This document shows positions 5,545 to 60,759 of a stretch of 64,000 bases of DNA, one piece after another. Where the stretch lies: the NCBI GenBank assembly GCA_036517195.1, contig DATDXU010000005.1, positions 4,975 to 68,974 of the forward strand, written 5' to 3'. The notes beneath the pieces were generated by a model that did no database searches, had not been told where the DNA came from, and saw nothing but the letters and a program-made list of their open reading frames with translations. The translations under genes were made by a program, and so were the position numbers. This DNA is from Minisyncoccota bacterium (GTDB lineage Bacteria; Patescibacteriota; Minisyncoccia; Phycocordibacterales; UBA2100). Numbering within the stretch: position 1 is the stretch's first letter; each line of letters opens with the position of its first letter.

Positions 5545-5579
5545 GGCGGTATTAGATCCTTGGTGCGGGATTCCGCACC
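5545..5579. repeat. Copy A of a palindromic repeat family with core GGTGCGGGATTYCGCACC
   Basis: Related copies lie at 30800-30833 and 60629-60662. The internal inverted repeat is GGTGCGG/CCGCACC. Confidence 0.5.
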
Positions 5580-5653
5580 GCGAGCAAGCTTTTGGGCTTT
5601 GTTACAAACGTTTGGTATCATGAGCTTGCTCGCGGTGCTTCATTTTAATTCTT

Positions 5654-5704
5654 TGCGGGATCATCTAGTGGTAGGACTTCTCCCTCTGGAGGAGAGTATC
5701 TTGG
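5654..5704 (+). pseudogene. Truncated tRNA-Gln-like fragment (5' 51 nt, D-arm and anticodon arm only)
   Basis: Matches the first 51 nt of the intact tRNA-Gln at 5774 with 2 mismatches, then diverges. It has no T-arm and no acceptor 3' strand. Confidence 0.5.
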
Positions 5705-5773: not shown

Positions 5774-5844
5774 TGCGGGATCGTCTAACGGTAGGACTTC
5801 TCCCTCTGGAGGAGAGTATCTTGGTTCGAGTCCAAGTCCCGCAG
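5774..5844 (+). tRNA. tRNA-Gln (anticodon CTG)
   Basis: Hand-folded cloverleaf with acceptor TGCGGGA/TCCCGCA, anticodon loop CTCTGGA and T-arm CTTGG-TTCGAGT-CCAAG. Confidence 0.75.
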
Positions 5845-5915: not shown

Positions 5916-5950
5916 CAGGTTTGAGATAGGTTCGGACTCCGAGGAGCATT
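5912..5950. repeat. Left direct repeat of the islet (CAGCCAGGTTTGAGATAGGTTCGGACTCCGAGGAGCATT)
   Basis: Repeated at 7574-7610 with a single 1-nt indel. Confidence 0.75.
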
Positions 5951-6345: not shown

Positions 6346-6783
6346 ATGAAGATAATTACTAAAAAGGAATCTGGCAATTCAGGAGAGCAAGAGATTGTAG
6401 ACCTTATCCCATGTCCGAATTGCGGGAAGAAATTGATGAAACTTCCATCAAACTATCCTTTATATGATGTCCAGTGCACTGGGTGTTCATTCCGTGCTCA
6501 AGTTAAAACAAATCAAAGTAAACCAAAATCAGTAGTTTTTGGAGCCGGGTGGCAAATTATGAACAAGGTATTGAAGTCTGGTTATATGACACCACCTCTT
6601 TTTCTAAACTTTAAATGGACAGAGAAAGATGATCAAAAACAAGAAGTCAGATTTTACCCCTTCGTGCCAAAGAAAAATCTCTCTAACTATCGTTTGTCTG
6701 CAACAGCACGTCGTGCAAATTATGAAATGTTTACCTATACGGGAATGGATAAGCTTCCGTATTTTCTAGTATATAAAAAATGA
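6346..6783 (+). CDS. Hypothetical zinc-ribbon protein
   Basis: CPNCGKK...x16...CTGCSF is a pair of CxxC motifs. It overlaps the next ORF by 4 bp (ATGA). Confidence 0.4.
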   Translation: MKIITKKESGNSGEQEIVDLIPCPNCGKKLMKLPSNYPLYDVQCTGCSFRAQVKTNQSKPKSVVFGAGWQIMNKVLKSGYMTPPLFLNFKWTEKDDQKQEVRFYPFVPKKNLSNYRLSATARRANYEMFTYTGMDKLPYFLVYKK

Positions 6784-7573: not shown

Positions 7574-7610
7574 AGCCAGTTTGAGATAGGTTCGGACTCC
7601 GAGGAGCATT
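7574..7610. repeat. Right direct repeat of the islet
   Basis: CAGCCAG-TTTGAGATAGGTTCGGACTCCGAGGAGCATT matches 5912-5950. Confidence 0.75.
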
Positions 7611-10254: not shown

Positions 10255-10312
10255 AGTGGGGCGGTATGTTCCATGTCTCTGGATGAGTTTTGGAATGTGT
10301 GAACATACACCG

Positions 10313-10338
10313 TTCTAGCTTTTTGCAAAAAGCTAGAA
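10313..10338. promoter_or_regulatory. Perfect 12-2-12 palindrome TTCTAGCTTTTT-GC-AAAAAGCTAGAA (site 1), a putative ArsR-family operator upstream of the regulator gene
   Basis: Identical 26-mers occur at 10603-10628 and 58939-58964. A 12-2-12 dyad is the classic operator architecture for ArsR/SmtB regulators. Confidence 0.55.
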
Positions 10339-10355
10339 TATAATGACGTACACAT

Positions 10356-10631
10356 ATGGCGCAAGAAAAATATCGCGTGTTGGAACGGATTATAAAAGGT
10401 TTTGCGAACCATCGGCGGCTCGCAATTCTTGATTTGTTGAAAAAGAGGCCAGAGCAGACTCTCGACGATATTGTGGAGACACTCGGCATTGGGTACCAAA
10501 ACGCATCGGATCATGTGCGCAAACTTGCGATTGCGGGTCTCGTGGCAAAGCGTAGTGACGGCTTGAATGTGCGACACAAACTTACGCCACGCGCAGAAAC
10601 CATTCTAGCTTTTTGCAAAAAGCTAGAATAA
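10356..10631 (+). CDS. ArsR/SmtB-family HTH transcriptional regulator
   Basis: The 91-aa protein has an HRRLAILDLL...LDDIVETLGIGYQNASDHVRKL winged helix. Confidence 0.7.
   Translation: MAQEKYRVLERIIKGFANHRRLAILDLLKKRPEQTLDDIVETLGIGYQNASDHVRKLAIAGLVAKRSDGLNVRHKLTPRAETILAFCKKLE
10603..10628. promoter_or_regulatory. Palindrome site 2, overlapping the last codons and stop of the ArsR-like gene and upstream of a small Cys-rich ORF
   Basis: Identical 26-mer. The stop codon TAA lies at 10629-10631. Confidence 0.5.
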
Positions 10632-10750
10632 GAAACTTTGCATCTCTTTGTTCCGAGGCGTAAAGGATCATTTTTTGTAAGGATGCTTTGTTTCTCTTTC
10701 TCCAGTGATATGATTTTGAGAGGTGGAGTAATGCAAAAAAGAGGTGATCT

Positions 10751-10969
10751 GTGGGCGATACAGTTATGCGTAGAAAATGCGCGCGCAAGAAGTACGGCCG
10801 CGGACAGTGGCTATGCGAGTGCAACGGAAATATTCGGAAGGATAATCAATGCACTGGCATAGGGTGTCTGGAGTATTACGAGCGCATAGGTGGCACAGAT
10901 TCTCCCGCGTACAAGACATTGCTCGCTGCAATTGCGGAAGATGAAAGAGATGACAAGAAACAGTCCTGA
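10751..10969 (+). CDS. Small cysteine-rich protein (5 Cys in about 68 aa), possibly metal-binding
   Basis: KCARKKYGRGQWLCECNGNIRKDNQCTGIGC. It lies downstream of the ArsR-family gene and palindrome site 2 and is followed by a terminator. Confidence 0.3.
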   Translation: MGDTVMRRKCARKKYGRGQWLCECNGNIRKDNQCTGIGCLEYYERIGGTDSPAYKTLLAAIAEDERDDKKQS

Positions 10970-10978
10970 TGTGTAACA

Positions 10979-11005
10979 GCGACCCGCAGAGCGGGTCGCG
11001 TTTTG
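10979..11005 (+). terminator. Rho-independent terminator
   Basis: GCGACCCGC-AGA-GCGGGTCGC followed by GTTTTG. Confidence 0.55.
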
Positions 11006-11020
11006 TAATATAATTGAATT

Positions 11021-12183: not shown

Positions 12184-12504
12184 ATGACACTGGAAGATGG
12201 AATATCGAGGCAGGGGCGCGTGCGCCCTATTGAGCATGGGGAAGAGCGCATCGCATTTTCCGCACTTAGGTATAGGGGAGAAATCTTCACTGGCGCAAAT
12301 CACGGCGATGCACTCATTGATCTTGAGGAGACACACCCAGATTTTGTGGGACGGGAAGTTGATGATGGTTTTACTACTTCTAGTGGGAGGTTTGTGGACA
12401 GAGTTGAGGCGTATACAATTGCGCGCAGTCAAGGCCAGCTGAAGCAGCGGTTTATTAGCTACAAAGGGGAGGGTGATTTAGACAGCAATTACCTACTTTC
12501 CTAG
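12184..12504 (+). CDS. Hypothetical protein
   Basis: 106-aa ORF with no recognisable motif. Confidence 0.3.
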   Translation: MTLEDGISRQGRVRPIEHGEERIAFSALRYRGEIFTGANHGDALIDLEETHPDFVGREVDDGFTTSSGRFVDRVEAYTIARSQGQLKQRFISYKGEGDLDSNYLLS

Positions 12505-12539
12505 CTTATTGCGAAGTAGTGTTTTAAAATACAACATAT

Positions 12540-12998
12540 ATGCCACGAACATTAGTTGTGATAATTGGTCTTGTCTTGGTGGGAGGGGGTTTGTATATAT
12601 GGTCTTCTGGCTCTTGGGTGGGGAGCACGAAAGTAGATGATACAAAAATCGGTGGGGGTGTCGTTGTTTCTCAAGCGGCGGGGTTGTATGGCGCGTATGA
12701 AGCGTATGCGCCGGAGAAACTTATGCGCGCGAGCGCGGAGAGATCCGTCGTTTTGTTTTTTCGCGCCGACTGGTGTCCGACATGTCGAGCGCTTGACGCG
12801 GACATTCGTTCAAAACTTGAAACAATTCCACAAAACGTGAGCATTTTGTACCTCAATTACGACACAGAAACGGCTCTCAAACAGAAATATGGCGTCACCT
12901 ATCAGCACACGCTAGTGCAGGTTGATGCCGAGGGAAACCAGATTGTTAAGTGGAGCAAATCTCCAACACTTGAAGATGTGCTGCTGAACATCAAATAG
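12540..12998 (+). CDS. Membrane-anchored thioredoxin-family protein
   Basis: An N-terminal TM helix and the WCPTC active site. Confidence 0.6.
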   Translation: MPRTLVVIIGLVLVGGGLYIWSSGSWVGSTKVDDTKIGGGVVVSQAAGLYGAYEAYAPEKLMRASAERSVVLFFRADWCPTCRALDADIRSKLETIPQNVSILYLNYDTETALKQKYGVTYQHTLVQVDAEGNQIVKWSKSPTLEDVLLNIK

Positions 12999-13003
12999 GT
13001 AGC

Positions 13004-13729
13004 ATGGCGTTTCTTATCATTTCGTTCATCGCGGGTGTCTTGACGGTTCTTGCTCCCTGCATTCTTCCGCTTTTGCCTGTTGTTATCGGCTCTTCCGCCA
13101 CAGGCAGGAGCAAAACCACTCCGTATATTGTCGTCGGCTCGCTCTCTGTTTCAATAATTCTTTTCACCTATGTTCTTAAGGCATCAACGGTGTTCATTAT
13201 GGTGCCTCCATATGTGTGGACGTATCTTTCCGGAGGCATTCTCGTTGCGTTTGGACTTTTTCTTGCTTTTCCAGCCCTATGGGAGAGTATGCCGGGACTT
13301 TCGAAATTCGCCGGGGATTCAAACAAATTTGTCGGTGCTGGGTATCAGCGCAAAAGTTTTTGGGGCGACGTGTTAATTGGCGCGGGGTTGGGTCCCGTGT
13401 TCACGAGCTGTTCGCCGACATACTTTGTAATTCTTGCCTCGGTATTGCCTGCTAGCTTTGCGCTTGGCACGGCGTACTTGTTTGCTTACGTGCTTGGGCT
13501 TGGGCTCGTTCTTCTTCTCGTGGCACTTCTGGGCGAACGGTTTGCGAATCGGTTGAGTATTCTGTCTGACTCTCGCGGACTGTTGAAGCGAGGGGTCGGC
13601 GTTCTTTTCATTCTCATTGGTATTGCGATTGCGACAGGGTATGAGAAGAGGATAGAGGTTGCAATTCTGGATGCGGGCTGGTTTGATATCACAAAGGTTG
13701 AGCGTGCCTTATTAGAAAAAATTCAATAA
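13004..13729 (+). CDS. ccdA: Cytochrome c-type biogenesis / thiol-disulfide transporter CcdA (DsbD transmembrane domain)
   Basis: LTVLAPCILPLLP near the N-terminus, a second conserved Cys region (SCSPT) and 6 TM helices. Confidence 0.7.
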   Translation: MAFLIISFIAGVLTVLAPCILPLLPVVIGSSATGRSKTTPYIVVGSLSVSIILFTYVLKASTVFIMVPPYVWTYLSGGILVAFGLFLAFPALWESMPGLSKFAGDSNKFVGAGYQRKSFWGDVLIGAGLGPVFTSCSPTYFVILASVLPASFALGTAYLFAYVLGLGLVLLLVALLGERFANRLSILSDSRGLLKRGVGVLFILIGIAIATGYEKRIEVAILDAGWFDITKVERALLEKIQ

Positions 13730-13732
13730 TAT

Positions 13733-14800
13733 ATGCGCATGGAATACGCGATTGGTTTATTGGTATTGGTGGTGGCGGGTGTTGGGCTCGCGATTTTGTA
13801 CACCCCCGTGTCTCCTAAGGCATCTAAGGGTTCTCCCTCTAGTGTTGCCAAGCAACAAGGGGACCCTTACAGAGAAATAGCAAACCCTGCTGGATTTGTG
13901 AACACGGACGGCATAACGATAAAAGAGTTGGTCGGCACAAAAGTCATTATTGTTGATTTTATGACGTACAGCTGTATCAACTGCCAGCGCACATTTCCGT
14001 ATTTGAACGCGTGGTACAAAAAATACAAAGACCAGGGTCTTGAAATCGTTGGGATTCACACGCCAGAGTTTGCGTTTGAAAAAAACATAGACAATGTGCG
14101 CGATGCGATGAAACGATTTGGCATTATGCATCCGGTTGTTTTAGACAACGACTATGGGACATGGAACGCATATGGGAACAGGTACTGGCCAAATAAATAT
14201 GTAATCGATATACACGGAAATATTGTGTACAGTCATGCTGGTGAAGGTGCATACGAGGAAACAGAGATGAAAATTCAGGAACTTCTTCGTGAGCGGGCTG
14301 AAGTTCTCGGCAGCTCCGTTGCCTTCGCTGGCGAGCTTGCTTCGTCTGACATGCCGCCTTTAAAAAATTTCGCGCGCAGTCCGGAAACGTATTTCGGGGC
14401 GTGGCGCAATGAGTATTTTGCAAACGGGATGCCGGGGAGGGAGGGTGAGCAGACACATGCGCTTCCGGATACGCTTATGCGCAATGCTCTGTATTTGGAT
14501 GGCACATGGAATATTGAGGACCAGTTTGCGGAATCGGTCAGAGATTCCAGCGTATTCTATCGTTACAATGCGGGGGATGTATTTATTGTCGCTGATGCGG
14601 ACAATCCTATTTCTGTAGAAGTATTTCAAGACGGAAAGCGAATAGACGTTGCTGCGGGTGCAGATGTTAGGGACGGAATTGTCACTATGCAAGAGAGTCG
14701 ATTGTACAAGTTGATTCACAACCGAGAGCCAGGAGAACACACGCTCGAACTTCGTGTCGGAGGAAAAGGGTTGCGTTTCTATGCATTTACGTTCGGGTGA
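13733..14800 (+). CDS. TlpA/ResA-like thiol-disulfide oxidoreductase with a C-terminal extension
   Basis: An N-terminal TM helix and a redoxin fold with the CINC active site (DFMTYSCINCQRTFPYL). Confidence 0.6.
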   Translation: MRMEYAIGLLVLVVAGVGLAILYTPVSPKASKGSPSSVAKQQGDPYREIANPAGFVNTDGITIKELVGTKVIIVDFMTYSCINCQRTFPYLNAWYKKYKDQGLEIVGIHTPEFAFEKNIDNVRDAMKRFGIMHPVVLDNDYGTWNAYGNRYWPNKYVIDIHGNIVYSHAGEGAYEETEMKIQELLRERAEVLGSSVAFAGELASSDMPPLKNFARSPETYFGAWRNEYFANGMPGREGEQTHALPDTLMRNALYLDGTWNIEDQFAESVRDSSVFYRYNAGDVFIVADADNPISVEVFQDGKRIDVAAGADVRDGIVTMQESRLYKLIHNREPGEHTLELRVGGKGLRFYAFTFG

Positions 14801-30726: not shown

Positions 30727-30749
30727 ATAAGGGGTGATGAAAAATGAAG

Positions 30750-30776
30750 CACCACGGGCGAGTCCGTGGTGTTTTA
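30750..30776 (+). terminator. Rho-independent terminator after groEL
   Basis: CACCACGG-gcgagt-CCGTGGTG followed by TTTT. Confidence 0.6.
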
Positions 30777-30799
30777 GAGTTTACAGCAAAACCTAAATA

Positions 30800-30833
30800 C
30801 TTGTCCGTGGTGCGGAATCCCGCACCGAGGACC
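30800..30833. repeat. Palindromic repeat family copy B (reverse orientation of the copy at 60629)
   Basis: CTTGTCCGTGGTGCGGAATCCCGCACCGAGGACC is the reverse complement of 60629-60662 except for 1-2 nt. Confidence 0.55.
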
Positions 30834-30933
30834 AGTTCATTTGTGTGTACACTGGTGGTCCTCTGGTGCGTGGAAGAAGGCCGCCCTGTGAGATAGCGAG
30901 CTTTGTGAGCTCAATCTCATAGGACGGTTTTCG

Positions 30934-32050: not shown

Positions 32051-32972
32051 TTGTGTGGAGAAGAATAGAGACGTATTAGGAAGAGAAAACAAAAAGACGG
32101 GTATTTCTCGTCGCACACTTCTCATAGGAGTTTCTGCTGTGGCGGGAGCGACTCTCGGTGGCGTTATCGCACATAGGGCGTTTTCGCCAAAGGAAACCAA
32201 GACCGATTTTCCAAAAAAAACTCCGACGCTCAGTCCAGAGAAAATTCCTACGAGCATTGATCGGGTACATGCAGAGATAGAACATGCGCGCATCCTCCTG
32301 TCTTCAAAAGACCCACTCGATGTTCTCAAAAGCACACATCTTGTGTCTGCCCTGTATTATTCCGACAGATTCCTTGCGTCTATTTTAAAATCAAGTGATA
32401 CGCCTGATGAATCACATGAAATCGTGCGCGGCATTGTCCCCCATATCACCACAGATGTTCGGCGGCGCTATGTGGAAGCTCTTTCAAAAGAGGCGTATAG
32501 AGCATTTGGCGAGCGATCCGAAGAGAAGCGCTCGCTCCCATTTCCGAAGTTAGATTTTGGACGAGGGGACAATCATCCTGATGCAGTGGATATTTTTGCG
32601 CGAGAGGGAACTAAAATCGCCTCTGTTCGAAGGGGTGTCGTTGTTTTGGCGGAATCCGGTTGGACCGAAAAGAATCCGTATCTTGGAACTTCTCCAAGGG
32701 GTGGAAACACAGCTATCGTTTTTAATCAGGATTCCAAACAGTTTTATCGGTATGCTCATCTCGATAGGGTTTCTATACGTACCGGAGAGGTGATAGGGGC
32801 GGGGCATTCCATAGGAACCGTTGGGAGAACTGGCATCAACGCTTTTCAAAATCGTAGCGCCAGTCATGTGCATCTGGAAATTAATGCATATACTCCAGCA
32901 ACACAGGGTATGAGATCGCTCTCGTCTCATGAAGTTAAACAAGAGATTCAAAAAATTAATTCAAATTCGTAA
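32001..32972 (+). CDS. M23 family metallopeptidase (LytM-like); the start is uncertain
   Basis: The C-terminal HxxxD...HVHLEIN Zn-binding motifs (GAGHSIGTVGRTG...SHVHLE). Confidence 0.65.
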   Translation: MERVRWPQKNQLQSSFNCVEKNRDVLGRENKKTGISRRTLLIGVSAVAGATLGGVIAHRAFSPKETKTDFPKKTPTLSPEKIPTSIDRVHAEIEHARILLSSKDPLDVLKSTHLVSALYYSDRFLASILKSSDTPDESHEIVRGIVPHITTDVRRRYVEALSKEAYRAFGERSEEKRSLPFPKLDFGRGDNHPDAVDIFAREGTKIASVRRGVVVLAESGWTEKNPYLGTSPRGGNTAIVFNQDSKQFYRYAHLDRVSIRTGEVIGAGHSIGTVGRTGINAFQNRSASHVHLEINAYTPATQGMRSLSSHEVKQEIQKINSNS

Positions 32973-32977
32973 TTGTA

Positions 32978-33107
32978 TGAATCCCGTTAGAAGTCGCGGA
33001 CGCATGCGAGAGGGGGTGTATACACATAAGTTTTGTGTTATACACTAATCGAGTGGGGGTGTGGAAATTTAAGTTTTTCCGCGTCCTACTTCTAAACGGG
33101 ATGAATA
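32978..33107. repeat. MITE-like element copy E1 (about 130 bp, terminal inverted repeats TGAATCCCGTTAGAAGTCGCGGACGC / CCGCGTCCTACTTCTAAACGGGATGAAT)
   Basis: It is homologous, in inverted orientation, to the copy at 44831-44956. Its right end overlaps the htpX start codon. Confidence 0.55.
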
Positions 33108-44830: not shown

Positions 44831-44956
44831 CTCATCCCGTTTTAAGTAGGACGCGGAAACACACATCACTCCACATCCTCTCGGTTAGTGTTTGTAATTA
44901 TCGACTTGTTTCACATGTATCTGACGCATGCGTCCGCGACTTCTAACGGGACTCAT
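44831..44956. repeat. MITE-like element copy E3 (homologous to E1, opposite orientation)
   Basis: Right end CGCATGCGTCCGCGACTTCTAACGGGACTCAT is the reverse complement of the E1 left end at 30/31 nt. The left end CTCATCCCGTTTTAAGTAGGACGCGGA matches the E1 right end. The interior shares CACTAAYCGAG..GTGGA. Confidence 0.55.
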
Positions 44957-45199
44957 ACTATCGATGAGGTACACCCCGCAGTAGATGGTGGCGAATGAAT
45001 ACACTCGCGCTTGTGATGCCACACCAACCGCAGTGTACAGGAACAGTATAAGATAGTAATAATTAAATTTCCACTTCTCGCGTGTTCACATTTTGAACAA
45101 TTTCTGTACAAGAAAATCACAAACTGCTCTTGTACAATGATACACCGCCCGTGGTGAGAAGTATCGCCACCATTCACTGACGGGGTACAATTATACTGT

Positions 45200-46246: not shown

Positions 46247-46344
46247 GCCTTTTTCTCCTACATCCACAGGTTCAGTTCTAATCTTGATGCAGTATAAACC
46301 AAATTTTATTATTGTCAACTTTTGTGCGGGCACGGAGAATCCCT

Positions 46345-46363
46345 GCCTGCCGGCAGGCAGGGA
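46345..46363. repeat. Palindrome CCTGCCTGCCGGCAGGCAGG (copy 1), next to tRNA-Gly
   Basis: A second copy lies at 55689-55707 next to tRNA-Val. Confidence 0.5.
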
Positions 46364-46376
46364 ACTCATATTTTGA

Positions 46377-46447
46377 TGCGAGTGGGGGGAATCGAACCCC
46401 CATCTAATGCTTGGGAAGCATTCATTCTGCCACTAAACTACACTCGC
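46377..46447 (-). tRNA. tRNA-Gly (anticodon CCC)
   Basis: Minus-strand cloverleaf with acceptor GCGAGTG/CACTCGC, anticodon loop TTCCCAA and T-loop TTCGATT. Confidence 0.8.
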
Positions 46448-46493
46448 TTACATTTGGGAAGTTTACCCCGTAGGAAGTGCGAAGCAATTTCCT

Positions 46494-46528
46494 GCGGGGC
46501 ATTCATTCTGCCACTAAACTATGCCCGC
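46494..46528 (-). pseudogene. Partial copy of the tRNA-Gly 5' half (acceptor, D-arm and anticodon stem)
   Basis: GCGGGCATAGTTTAGTGGCAGAATGAATGC matches tRNA-Gly positions 1-30 with few changes and has no 3' half. Confidence 0.45.
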
Positions 46529-46589
46529 TTTTTGTTCTCGTATTGCAGTATGGTACACTATAGAAAAATTAATTGGTATATACATATAT

Positions 46590-47703: not shown

Positions 47704-47708
47704 GGTAC

Positions 47709-47760
47709 AGTTGCCCAGATAGCCAAGGGGCAGGTAGATAGTTAGAGCATGCGATCGGTG
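47709..47760 (+). pseudogene. Degenerate partial copy of the tRNA-Phe 5' part
   Basis: TAGTTGCCCAGATAGC-CAAGGGGCAGGTAGATAGTTAGAGCAT against TAGTTGCCCAGATAGCTCAGGTAGTTAGAGCAT of the intact gene. Confidence 0.4.
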
Positions 47761-47768
47761 GTGTAGTT

Positions 47769-47842
47769 GCCCAGATAGCTCAGGTAGTTAGAGCATTCCC
47801 CTGAAGAGGGAAGGGTGGTCAGTGCAAGTCTGACTCTGGGCA
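47769..47842 (+). tRNA. tRNA-Phe (anticodon GAA); T-loop reads TGCAAGT, with G at position 55
   Basis: Acceptor GCCCAGA/TCTGGGC, D-arm GCTC..GAGC and anticodon loop CTGAAGA. The T-loop is non-canonical. Confidence 0.65.
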
Positions 47843-55688: not shown

Positions 55689-55707
55689 CCCTGCCTGCCG
55701 GCAGGCA
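55689..55707. repeat. Palindrome CTGCCTGCCGGCAGGCAGG (copy 2), about 65 bp upstream of tRNA-Val
   Basis: Matches 46345-46363. Confidence 0.5.
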
Positions 55708-55812
55708 GGTAAGCGCGCCATCGTACACCATTATACTTATTACTGTGAAAATGCTATAAAGCACGAGGTTCGTTGCTCGCTAGCAGGGCAATAATAGAGG
55801 AGAATACACACA

Positions 55813-58424: not shown

Positions 58425-58536
58425 CCCTGAATCTGGACTCGTTTTTCCAAACATTGACCAAAACAGGTTACAGTGTTACTGTTGTTTCGGAGTTATCGGT
58501 CATGTCATGTGATTGATGTTCAGTAAGGAGGGCGTG

Positions 58537-58815
58537 ATGGCATACAAACAGTTTGGGATGCGTGAGTATCCGACATTCAACGCGCTTCTCAAAGGCGAGG
58601 AGATCAACTTCGAGGGCGTCAAGCTAAAAATGGACGGTGATGGGAAGGTTAGGCAAGGGGACCTCTACGTGGCCGAACGCAACACGGGACCTAAGTTGCT
58701 GACGGCTCGCGAAATTGTCATGTCCGAATGTGGGTGTTGCATCAGCTACATCATCCCAACCTCGAGCGATTATTGCTTCGACGGCACCGAGTGCGTGAAG
58801 GTGTGCGAGGCGTGA
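58537..58815 (+). CDS. Small cysteine-rich protein (6 Cys in the C-terminal 40 aa)
   Basis: ECGCCISYIIPTSSDYCFDGTECVKVCEA. The third ArsR-type palindrome lies downstream. Confidence 0.3.
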   Translation: MAYKQFGMREYPTFNALLKGEEINFEGVKLKMDGDGKVRQGDLYVAERNTGPKLLTAREIVMSECGCCISYIIPTSSDYCFDGTECVKVCEA

Positions 58816-58938
58816 TGTGTTGTGAGTATGGGGCGTGTGCGGGAGGAATCTCGCCACGCTCCATTTTTTATGGAATGTACTTTTCTTGAAATGGCCATAC
58901 ACTATATATAGTTTTGAAAAGGTATGAAAATTACACCA

Positions 58939-58964
58939 TTCTAGCTTTTTGCAAAAAGCTAGAA
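58939..58964. promoter_or_regulatory. Palindrome site 3, identical to the 26-mer at 10313, upstream of a secreted-protein gene
   Basis: Exact match to TTCTAGCTTTTTGCAAAAAGCTAGAA. Confidence 0.5.
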
Positions 58965-58981
58965 TGTAATAGTGTGAGTGC

Positions 58982-59275
58982 ATGTCACAGCACAGGAGAA
59001 TGGGTGCAATGAGAATGACCAAAAGTGATCTAGCGATGGTTACTGTGGCAGTCGTTTTTGGCGGATTTTTTCTTTTTTCAGTTACCACGGAGGCGACGTG
59101 TTCACGGATTGTGAATGTTACGACACCCGAAACATTCGGGGTCTACGGTATTCCTTTCTCGATGAGATATGGATACGAACTTGAATTGGAAGACGGAAGG
59201 CGGATTGCGAGAGACAGCAGGTCTATAGATAGGCCGGAAGGGGAGTATTGCGAACATCGCTTCGCCATCAAGTAA
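58982..59275 (+). CDS. Hypothetical secreted protein
   Basis: A TM/signal helix (LAMVTVAVVFGGFFLFSVT) and 97 aa. Confidence 0.35.
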   Translation: MSQHRRMGAMRMTKSDLAMVTVAVVFGGFFLFSVTTEATCSRIVNVTTPETFGVYGIPFSMRYGYELELEDGRRIARDSRSIDRPEGEYCEHRFAIK

Positions 59276-60540: not shown

Positions 60541-60628
60541 GAACACATGCGCTCCCCAAAAGGGGAGCGTTCTTCCACGCACCAGAGGACCAGGGGTTTA
60601 CTTACGGGGTTTACTTACGGACGAATGG

Positions 60629-60710
60629 GTCCTCGGTGCGGGATTTCGCACCACGGACAAGCTTTCGTATTTTGTCGTATGTCCAAATGGTATGAGCTTG
60701 TCCGTGGTGC
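60629..60710. repeat. Palindromic repeat family copy C plus a flanking inverted half-copy
   Basis: GGTCCTCGGTGCGGGATTTCGCACCACGGACAAGC, then 33 bp, then GCTTGTCCGTGGTGC. The tandem repeat GGGGTTTACTTAC x2 lies at 60593-60618. Confidence 0.5.
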
Positions 60711-60759
60711 TTCATTTTTACTGTGATAGAATCACACAATTATATAATCTAAAAAAGGT

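Follow-up and report, generated by a model that had tools for sequence, protein, structure and literature searches.

The regulator gene and its palindromes

The window analysed here is a stretch of 64,000 nucleotides from a Minisyncoccota bacterium (GenBank assembly GCA_036517195.1, contig DATDXU010000005.1, positions 4,975 to 68,974 of the forward strand), and the subject of this work is a small regulator gene within it that is bracketed by two copies of a palindrome. The gene (10356..10631, + strand) encodes a 91-residue protein with an ArsR/SmtB-like winged helix-turn-helix. Its neighbours in the window are a saccharopine-dehydrogenase-like gene, a small open reading frame (ORF) of 72 residues with five cysteines (10751..10969, + strand) and a gene for a lycopene-cyclase-domain protein. 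A scan of the 64-kb window located the 26-mer TTCTAGCTTTTTGCAAAAAGCTAGAA exactly at 10313-10338, 10603-10628 and 58939-58964. No match arose in 100 dinucleotide-preserving shuffles of the window, and the number expected by chance is 0. The initial annotation had correctly described the 26-mer upstream of the regulator gene and across its last codons and stop; its two copies are both exact, but the third exact copy at 58939 had been missed.

The three copies are putative operators, to which no strand is assigned. Copies 2 and 3 are perfect 28-bp palindromes with the sequence ATTCTAGCTTTTTGCAAAAAGCTAGAAT. The gene-end copy (10602..10629) covers codons 83-91 (ILAFCKKLE) and the T of the stop codon, and the third copy (58938..58965) has flanks in common with copy 1 (TACACC ... 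T[A/G]TAAT). The upstream copy, GTTCTAGCTTTTTGCAAAAAGCTAGAAT (10312..10339), overlaps the regulator promoter and recurs in related loci; a G replaces the first A of the 28-mer, leaving 13 of 14 positions paired.

The assignment of the protein to the ArsR/SmtB family, made in the initial annotation, is supported by its winged-helix fold and by matches to family models. Pfam matches above the cut-offs are HTH_20 (31.6 bits, cut-off 27), HTH_5/ArsR (25.0 bits, cut-off 22) and MarR_2. The AlphaFold (AF2) model, with a predicted local distance difference test score (pLDDT) of 82, has helices at residues 2-30, 36-43, 47-59 and 78-90 and strands at 63-68 and 71-76, which places the recognition helix at about 47-59, the wing at 63-76 and the C-terminal helix at 78-90. 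The best structural neighbours found by Foldseek are CadC, SqrR, Rv0081, HlyU and SmtB, together with the centromere-binding protein AspA, and sequence matches to solved ArsR-family proteins in the PDB are weak but consistent (E-values 5e-5 to 8e-3). On these matches the regulator is ArsR-like in fold, and its sequence gives no mark of metal sensing.

The family is large and confined in its distribution. The window regulator has matches in more than 660 sequence clusters, and a divergent member in more than 2,056 (E<=1e-10), with identities among homologues typically 65-76% across orders. Wherever source names place the organism, they give a lineage of Patescibacteria/Paceibacteria or a generic label, some titles of metagenome-assembled genomes reading ‘Candidatus Saccharibacteria’. 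An identical protein in public data, from a ‘Candidatus Paceibacterota’ metagenome-assembled genome, is annotated only as a winged-helix protein, and a full-text literature search returned nothing describing the regulator family or the palindrome motif. A metagenome scan with a 20-mer recovered other Paceibacteria and only short fragments of the window's organism (loci L091 and L111). Two or three paralogues of the regulator occur together in several genomes, every one of them with a bracket and an operator variant of its own (L003/L033/L051 in one genome, L028/L067/L072 in another; for example L033:16414-16747), which suggests a small family of orthogonal regulators in one cell.

The putative promoter-side operator

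For the family survey, 80 loci from species-representative genomes encoding homologues were collected and combined with the window to give 81 loci. A matching palindrome lies within 200 nt upstream of the regulator in 74 of these. In 33 of the 74, the dyad centre and the first in-frame start are separated by 29-31 nt (by exactly 30 nt in 27 loci), and 30 of the 33 have a TAnnnT hexamer (TAGAAT, TAAAAT, TACAAT, TATAAT and others) 4-9 nt past the palindrome, followed by 6 nt and then the start. A second promoter class has its -10 element 17-22 nt beyond the palindrome. Judging from the dyad-to-start and hexamer spacing, the palindrome would span about -44 to -17, with its centre TTTGCA at the place of the -35 element, and the message would be leaderless.

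The window follows this plan in outline. Copy 1 ends 17 nt before the ATG at 10356, and the 30-nt distance from dyad centre to ATG is held by both promoter copies of the window (ATG 10356 and ATG 58982). A -10-like TATAAT (10339..10344, + strand) abuts the upstream operator with the ATG 11 nt further on, so the leader should be very short or absent. The regulator gene is preceded by the long inverted repeat typical of an autorepressor, a 13-2-13 dyad followed by a -10-like hexamer, and repression by promoter occlusion would be the natural inference.

The proposal that the dyads are the regulator's operators, already made in the initial annotation, gains further support from the survey. In addition to their position on the promoter in 74 of 81 loci, the dyads vary by lineage together with the protein, and residues 70 and 71 at the wing tip are the most informative ones on operator positions 5-9. 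For example, GRD is found with CAAACG, and EGS or DGP with CTAGTG. This covariation fits direct recognition of the operator by the wing.

A putative operator written into the gene end

The second copy is read as ATT CTA GCT TTT TGC AAA AAG CTA GAA T(AA), that is I-L-A-F-C-K-K-L-E-stop, residues 83-91 of the regulator. In 77 of the 81 loci the last nine codons and the first base of the stop codon take the form ATTCTAG-NN-TTTTGCAAAA-NN-CTAGAAT in identical register, and at least 10 of 14 positions of the gene-end site are paired in 73 of 81. The initial annotation had called a palindrome encoding the C-terminus of its own putative binding protein unusual. It was right to do so, and this is the main point of the present analysis: the arrangement is conserved family-wide and shows selection at the level of DNA.

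Codon choice in the tail is strongly biased. CTA accounts for 5.7% of Leu codons in the gene body and 69% in the last nine codons; the corresponding values are 51% and 99% for Phe TTT, 46% and 100% for Glu GAA, and 50% and 92% for Lys AAA. Normalised synonymous-codon entropy falls from 0.89 over the 61 conserved positions of the body to 0.29 over the tail (p=3.5e-5), and Ser82 is TCT in 48 of 49 cases, like the pyrimidine flank of intergenic sites. With a weight matrix trained only on sites other than gene ends, gene ends reach a mean of 41.5 bits, compared with 40.5 for the training sites and 10.8 for synonymous recodings of the same peptides, and in 74 of 77 cases the score of the real gene end exceeds that of 999 or more of 1000 recodings. 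The two gene-end halves show 1.1 and 1.5 mismatches to the upstream operator of their own locus and 2.2 and 2.6 to the operators of other loci, values as low being reached in 0 of 2000 permutations; the codon, matrix and half-site tests all leave kinship among loci uncorrected. Selection maintains the gene-end site as DNA, beyond the peptide that it encodes.

The variants found at gene ends are consistent with the operators of each locus. Lineage-specific variants are common to the sites of one locus, such as GC..GC three times in the window, TC..GA four times in L030, TT..AA in L029, ATAC..GTAT in L027 and TTCTGCAGAA three times in L076. Some compensating changes alter the protein: TTT to TTC with AAA to AGA (K to R; TTC/AGA in L076), CTA to TTA with GAA to AAA (E to K; TTA/AAA in L031), and ATT to ATA with GAA to GTA (E to V; ATA/GTA in L027).

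About one third of the genes, such as those ending KRLQ, have gene-end halves that do not pair with each other. Both halves are nevertheless exact half-sites that are also found at intergenic sites in 64 of 77 genes, giving hybrids such as ATACTAGTG...GACTGCAAT. The gene end thus follows the logic of a dimer on two half-sites rather than that of a conserved hairpin. These hybrids bear directly on the idea that the gene-end palindrome acts as RNA, be it a stabiliser of the mRNA 3' end, a terminator without U-tract or a translational element at the stop. The perfect palindrome would fold to a stem of about 12 bp, and many intergenic sites are palindromic past the conserved core, which gives them a structural look. 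However, it is the sequence, beyond mere pairing, that is conserved across the class; the exact known half-sites are kept even when unpaired, the mismatches are mostly A-A, C-C, G-G and A-C rather than G-U, and the copies at promoters precede the likely start, so that transcripts beginning there would not include them. Nor does the site resemble an intrinsic terminator: the stem is AT-rich, the 3' flank is purine-rich and no T-run follows on the + strand, hence no U-run in the message. An Rfam search of the locus and the whole window matched only tRNAs, RNase P and one chance hit, with nothing at the gene end. We consider a role as RNA hairpin very improbable.

A functionless origin is scarcely more credible. 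The palindromes could be a mobile repeat of the repetitive extragenic palindrome or miniature inverted-repeat transposable element (REP/MITE) kind, or quasi-palindromes kept perfect by template switching or gene conversion; the copies are exact, copies 1 and 3 share flanks, and site-specific extension of the palindromy is what template-switch correction would produce. Such repeats would be dispersed in many intergenic copies tied to no single gene. Instead of such a common dispersed repeat, which the initial annotation had named as refuting its proposal, there are three copies in 64 kb, two of them attached to the regulator gene, with fixed placement in related loci, and a search of 2.9 million viral contigs for CTAGNNTTTTGCAAAANNCTAG gave 0 matches. 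Although the lineages are very divergent, 77 of 81 loci have one and the same coding-frame register, and the position relative to the -10 element and start codon is fixed too; half-site logic is kept in hybrid sites; and where the C-terminus has diverged the site has been relocated rather than lost (7 of 7 cases).

Palindromy also extends beyond the conserved 28-mer at perfect sites outside gene ends, by 3-12 bp of site-specific sequence (for example L057:2139-2166, L040:9923-9950 and L033:16413-16440). The mean number of extra pairs is 3.5, compared with 0.9 for shuffled partners, and at least five extra pairs occur in 22 of 73 sites where 1.5 are expected. Perfect intergenic sites have a left flank rich in pyrimidines and a right flank rich in purines, and such type-specific preferences account for the first two or three extra positions. 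For the rest, the cause could be mirror-image -10 boxes belonging to divergent promoters, ‘perfection’ of the palindromes by template switching, or a structural role.

Taken in full, the proposal is that the same 28-34 bases are read twice throughout the class, as S-I-L-x-F-C-K-x-L-E-stop and as a binding site, so that a functional operator would be hard-wired into the codons of the C-terminal (dimerisation) helix and the operator-gene-operator bracket would form an obligatory self-limiting cassette acting through a roadblock or spreading. We place this broader statement just short of even odds. If it is true, a change in specificity would force changes at residues 89 (K/R/T/I) and 91 (E/Q/K/V), and vice versa, and the self-limiting cassette could be a main regulatory device in genomes with very few transcription factors.

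The downstream site and the proposed mechanism

The strongest evidence on the downstream site comes from a diverged subfamily with other C-termini (FCRSLK, FCRTLS, FCKNLF and others), which retains only 2-7 of 14 pairs at the gene end. In all seven of its loci that were examined (L073 and L118-L123), a separate operator matching the upstream one is centred 17-69 nt past the stop, and in L121 this site lies between convergent genes. The bracket is therefore conserved with or without embedding, which argues that the function of the downstream site belongs with the regulator gene itself.

On this basis the following mechanism is proposed. The regulator would bind as a dimer to the 28-34 bp palindrome (YYY)ATTCTAG-NN-TTTTGCAAAA-NN-CTAGAAT(RRR). 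At the promoter, the bound copy would cover the -35 element and spacer of its own, usually leaderless, promoter and cause self-repression. The second copy, which closes every gene either in the last nine codons and first stop base or, in one subfamily, just past the stop, could hold regulator that stops elongating RNA polymerase having escaped the promoter block, a second layer of self-repression; an operator-grade site over codons 83-91 and the stop, at the end of the gene's own transcribed region, is the position that such a roadblock would call for. The block may also shield the regulator gene from convergent transcription. Further, it would gate read-through into the downstream gene, here the cysteine-rich ORF, because the first terminator 3' of the regulator stands at 10979. 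This is the intrinsic terminator GCGACCCGC-AGA-GCGGGTCGC followed by a T-run (10979..11006, + strand; stem 10979-10999). Other genes, few in number, would come under this control through further copies of the palindrome; in the window this would apply to the ORF at 58982.

The core of this account, an autoregulator with two selected operators, we regard as very likely to be correct, and the probability of the whole explanation, roadblock included, we estimate at about 0.55. Taken by itself, the roadblock at the downstream operator is tentative, with odds somewhat under even.

Several points weigh against the account. Anatomy, conservation, DNA-level selection and covariation are direct results of the comparison; binding, repression and the roadblock step are inferred from them, the last only by analogy, and ArsR-type dimers are not known as roadblocks. 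The covariation tests carry no correction for shared ancestry. The regulator promoter of the window is atypical, with TGACGT at the usual hexamer position and the perfect TATAAT 5 nt further upstream. In the non-embedded subfamily the polymerase would, at some loci, stall past the stop, so that messages without a stop codon would not be a consistent outcome of the design. Weak gene-end palindromes are not compensated by an extra site within 260 nt downstream (3 of 34 compared with 2 of 43, p=0.65). Finally, the extended palindromy is not explained by simple operator recognition.

The two operators might also act together. Dimers could bridge them in a loop of about 300 bp, or nucleate at both and spread, thereby silencing the gene. 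Conservation of the bracket whether or not the second site is embedded would suit this, as would the L121 site between convergent genes, which fits a role tied to the regulator gene. Likewise, Foldseek places the model near AspA-DNA complexes (4rs8/5k5q; template modelling score 0.65-0.77, root-mean-square deviation 1.5-2.1 A), alongside ArsR proteins. A rigid loop is disfavoured by the centre-to-centre spacings of the operators (283-360 bp), in which no helical phasing was seen (Rayleigh p ~0.3-0.4 over periods of 10-11.3 bp), a weak test at such length and one that is silent on spreading. In addition, no ParA or ParB genes stand next to the regulator in the window and no oligomerisation is known for the family. 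We judge joint action of this kind unlikely overall, and treat bridging or AspA-like spreading as a serious alternative.

The gene-end dyad could instead serve mainly as the operator of a promoter belonging to the downstream gene. At some loci the spacing from a gene-end or post-stop site to the next gene start is that of a leaderless promoter, as for TsaD in L123, which starts 31 nt from the dyad; genes for a cupin, ScpA and a flavin adenine dinucleotide (FAD) protein are close by in some loci. A crude ORF call gives 59 of 71 downstream genes the orientation of the regulator. By the same call, 12 of 71 are convergent, and seven of the co-directional genes overlap the stop as ATGA, which points to an operon rather than a separate promoter. 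Past the gene-end sites, no -10-like hexamer recurs at a constant offset. In the window, the cysteine-rich ORF is preceded by a single -10-like element (TATGAT, ~10708), some 93 nt from the dyad, and the gene-end copy overlaps no recognisable promoter for this ORF, contrary to the core of the initial annotation's suggestion. The downstream genes are also not conserved: an all-against-all comparison of ORFs within 3 kb in the 81 loci yielded only small clusters (TspO-like in 10 loci, DUF1905-like in 11, the FAD protein in four). An operator for the neighbour is thus an improbable main function, and self-repression of the regulator gene is preferred.

The cysteine-rich ORF and the question of metal

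The initial annotation had suggested an SmtB-type regulator controlling a metallothionein or efflux gene, with the cysteine-rich ORF as its metal-binding target. In this scheme the regulator would repress the adjacent gene until released by metal. Its attractions are the ArsR/SmtB-like fold, distant sequence matches to CadC, SmtB and CmtR, a 13-2-13 dyad resembling the 12-2-12 operators of the family, and a neighbouring ORF with five conserved cysteines. However, by inspection of its sequence the regulator has a single Cys (C87), no CXC in alpha3 (LDDIVETLG) and no alpha5 set of Asp/His with His/Glu, its C-terminal helix reading PRAETILAFCKKLE without His or Asp. It also scores 46.1 bits against the NCBIfam metalloregulator model NF033788 (HTH_metalloreg), below the cut-off of 55.

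The ORF fares no better as a target. With five cysteines in 72 residues (7%) and no Pfam or NCBIfam family match, it does not resemble a metallothionein, and a weak similarity of residues 35-60 to FG-GAP repeat proteins was judged uninformative. Among 1.84 billion representatives it has one full-length homologue, 79% identical and with all five cysteines kept; it is therefore probably a real but orphan gene, and probably co-transcribed by read-through from the regulator. None of the 80 related loci has a homologue of it within 3 kb of the regulator. A relative with a 91%-identical regulator keeps both 28-mers 290 bp apart, and its next genes encode a GIY-YIG protein and an unrelated 74-residue ORF. 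There is no metal efflux, metallothionein or reductase gene adjacent to the regulator in the window and no conserved neighbour in the 80 loci, and the genes behind operator sites elsewhere are a miscellany (ScpA, TsaD, a cupin, MscL, the FAD protein). The metal-sensing scheme and its proposed target are accordingly abandoned as highly improbable.

Nothing points to metal as the regulator's signal. C87 is invariant even in the subfamily without the embedded dyad, so its conservation is that of the amino acid, and the signal might be thiol-based. As a separate observation, a thiol-redox cluster (thioredoxin, DsbD_2 and AhpC/redoxin; annotation from L113) occupies 12185-14800, downstream of the regulator gene by 1.5-4 kb and in the same orientation, with no operator site in front of it.

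The third copy and other putative targets

The third operator precedes a putative second target (58982..59275, + strand), which encodes 97 residues with one hydrophobic helix and could be assigned to no known family. From the dyad centre to its ATG the distance is 30 nt, and its promoter contains TGTAAT/TAGTGT, with TAGTGT at the usual hexamer place, 6 nt upstream of ATG 58982. Between tRNA-Ser and this operator, a second small cysteine-rich ORF of 100 residues (...CGCCISYIIPTSSDYCFDGTECVKVCEA; 58513-58815) was observed, likewise without a known family.

Extra sites in related loci precede assorted genes, including those for ScpA/ScpB, TsaD, a cupin, MscL, the FAD protein, a sigma factor of the extracytoplasmic function (ECF) type and small unknown proteins; this gene list was made without a gene caller and is noisy, and only clear cases are quoted. 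The targets have no metal theme. ScpA/ScpB (chromosome condensation) and TsaD (tRNA modification) occur directly 3' of operator sites in different lineages (L119:1802-1886, L120:1804-1884, L123:1710-1755, L098:5213-5264 and L092:13913-13940).

Other features of the window

Several features unrelated to the regulator were recorded in the window. A 51-nt copy of the 5' part of tRNA-Gln stands 120 nt upstream of the intact gene (5654-5704 and 5774-5824), and an exact 32-nt direct repeat (5919-5950 and 7579-7610) flanks about 1.66 kb of adjoining sequence with a DpnI-like gene (~6346-6783, mapped from L113). Together these look like a small island integrated at the tRNA. Partial duplicates of tRNA-Gly (46418-46449 and 46499-46530) and tRNA-Phe (47704-47728 and 47760-47784) beside the intact genes may be further integration remnants. 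Inverted repeats at 32972-33091 and 44844-44961 (37 nt at 95% and 35 nt at 77%) flank an 11.9-kb segment that could be invertible or mobile.

A three-copy repeat family of ~90-170 nt with 76-91% identity (5557-5646, 30740-30898 and 60550-60719) contains the hairpin GTGCGGGATTCCGCAC and has no Rfam match at the gathering threshold. The G+C-rich palindrome CCCTGCCTGCCGGCAGGCAGGG occurs twice (46341-46364 and 55689-55712), by tRNA-Gly and tRNA-Val; the pair are probably shared terminators.

Significance

Paceibacteria are members of the Candidate Phyla Radiation; almost all are uncultured and have tiny genomes, and their gene regulation is nearly unstudied. Because it comprises more than 2,000 sequence clusters, often with several paralogues per genome, the regulator family may be one of their main transcription factors. 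Its operator variants track protein variants and its leaderless geometry is fixed, a readable code that could be used for regulon prediction from metagenomes. The embedded operator would also be a clear natural example of a single piece of DNA constrained both as coding sequence and as a protein-binding site.

Comparison with known systems

Inverted-repeat operators of the 12-2-12 type are known for the ArsR/SmtB family. The autorepressors of this family (SmtB, CzrA and CadC, and the non-metal Rv0081, NolR, HlyU and SqrR/BigR) share with the regulator a small dimeric winged-helix fold with wing and C-terminal helix and a long AT-rich dyad on their own promoter, and negative autoregulation is expected. 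In contrast to them, the regulator has none of the described types of metal site and lacks the paired Cys of SqrR/BigR. Its family also differs in being restricted to Paceibacteria, unusually conserved and often present as two or three paralogues per genome with their own operator variants, and in that a second operator always closes the gene, usually within the codons of the C-terminal helix.

AspA of the archaeal plasmid pNOB8 spreads on DNA from a palindrome and is part of a ParA/ParB partition cassette. Like the regulator, it is a winged-helix protein of about 90 residues with a very similar fold and a palindrome next to its own gene. In contrast, the sites of the regulator stand at promoter geometry before assorted genes, and no ParA/ParB genes flank it in the window or in contigs of the same organism.

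For the roadblock there are two tested precedents. As stated in PMC3711431, citing Abo et al. 2000, transcription of lacI is halted by LacI bound at O3, close to the 3' end of the gene, and the truncated products are SsrA-tagged. As in the regulator, a repressor's operator lies at the 3' end of its own gene, and this is a tested precedent for self-repression by roadblock. However, O3 of lac is a weak auxiliary site that forms a loop with O1 through the tetramer and serves the neighbouring lacZ promoter, whereas the regulator's gene-end site is as strong as its promoter site, encodes nine conserved residues and is kept over a whole bacterial class with unrelated neighbours. The restriction-modification controller C.Kpn2I, according to the abstract of PMC6237814, binds inside its own coding region as an elongation roadblock. 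It belongs to another protein family and a restriction-modification setting, and the abstract places the site in the coding region, gives no position there and describes no bracketing pair. The regulator would extend self-repression of the lacI-O3 type from a single curiosity to a conserved design. As such, its operator-gene-operator arrangement is a new conserved form of an already known kind of system.

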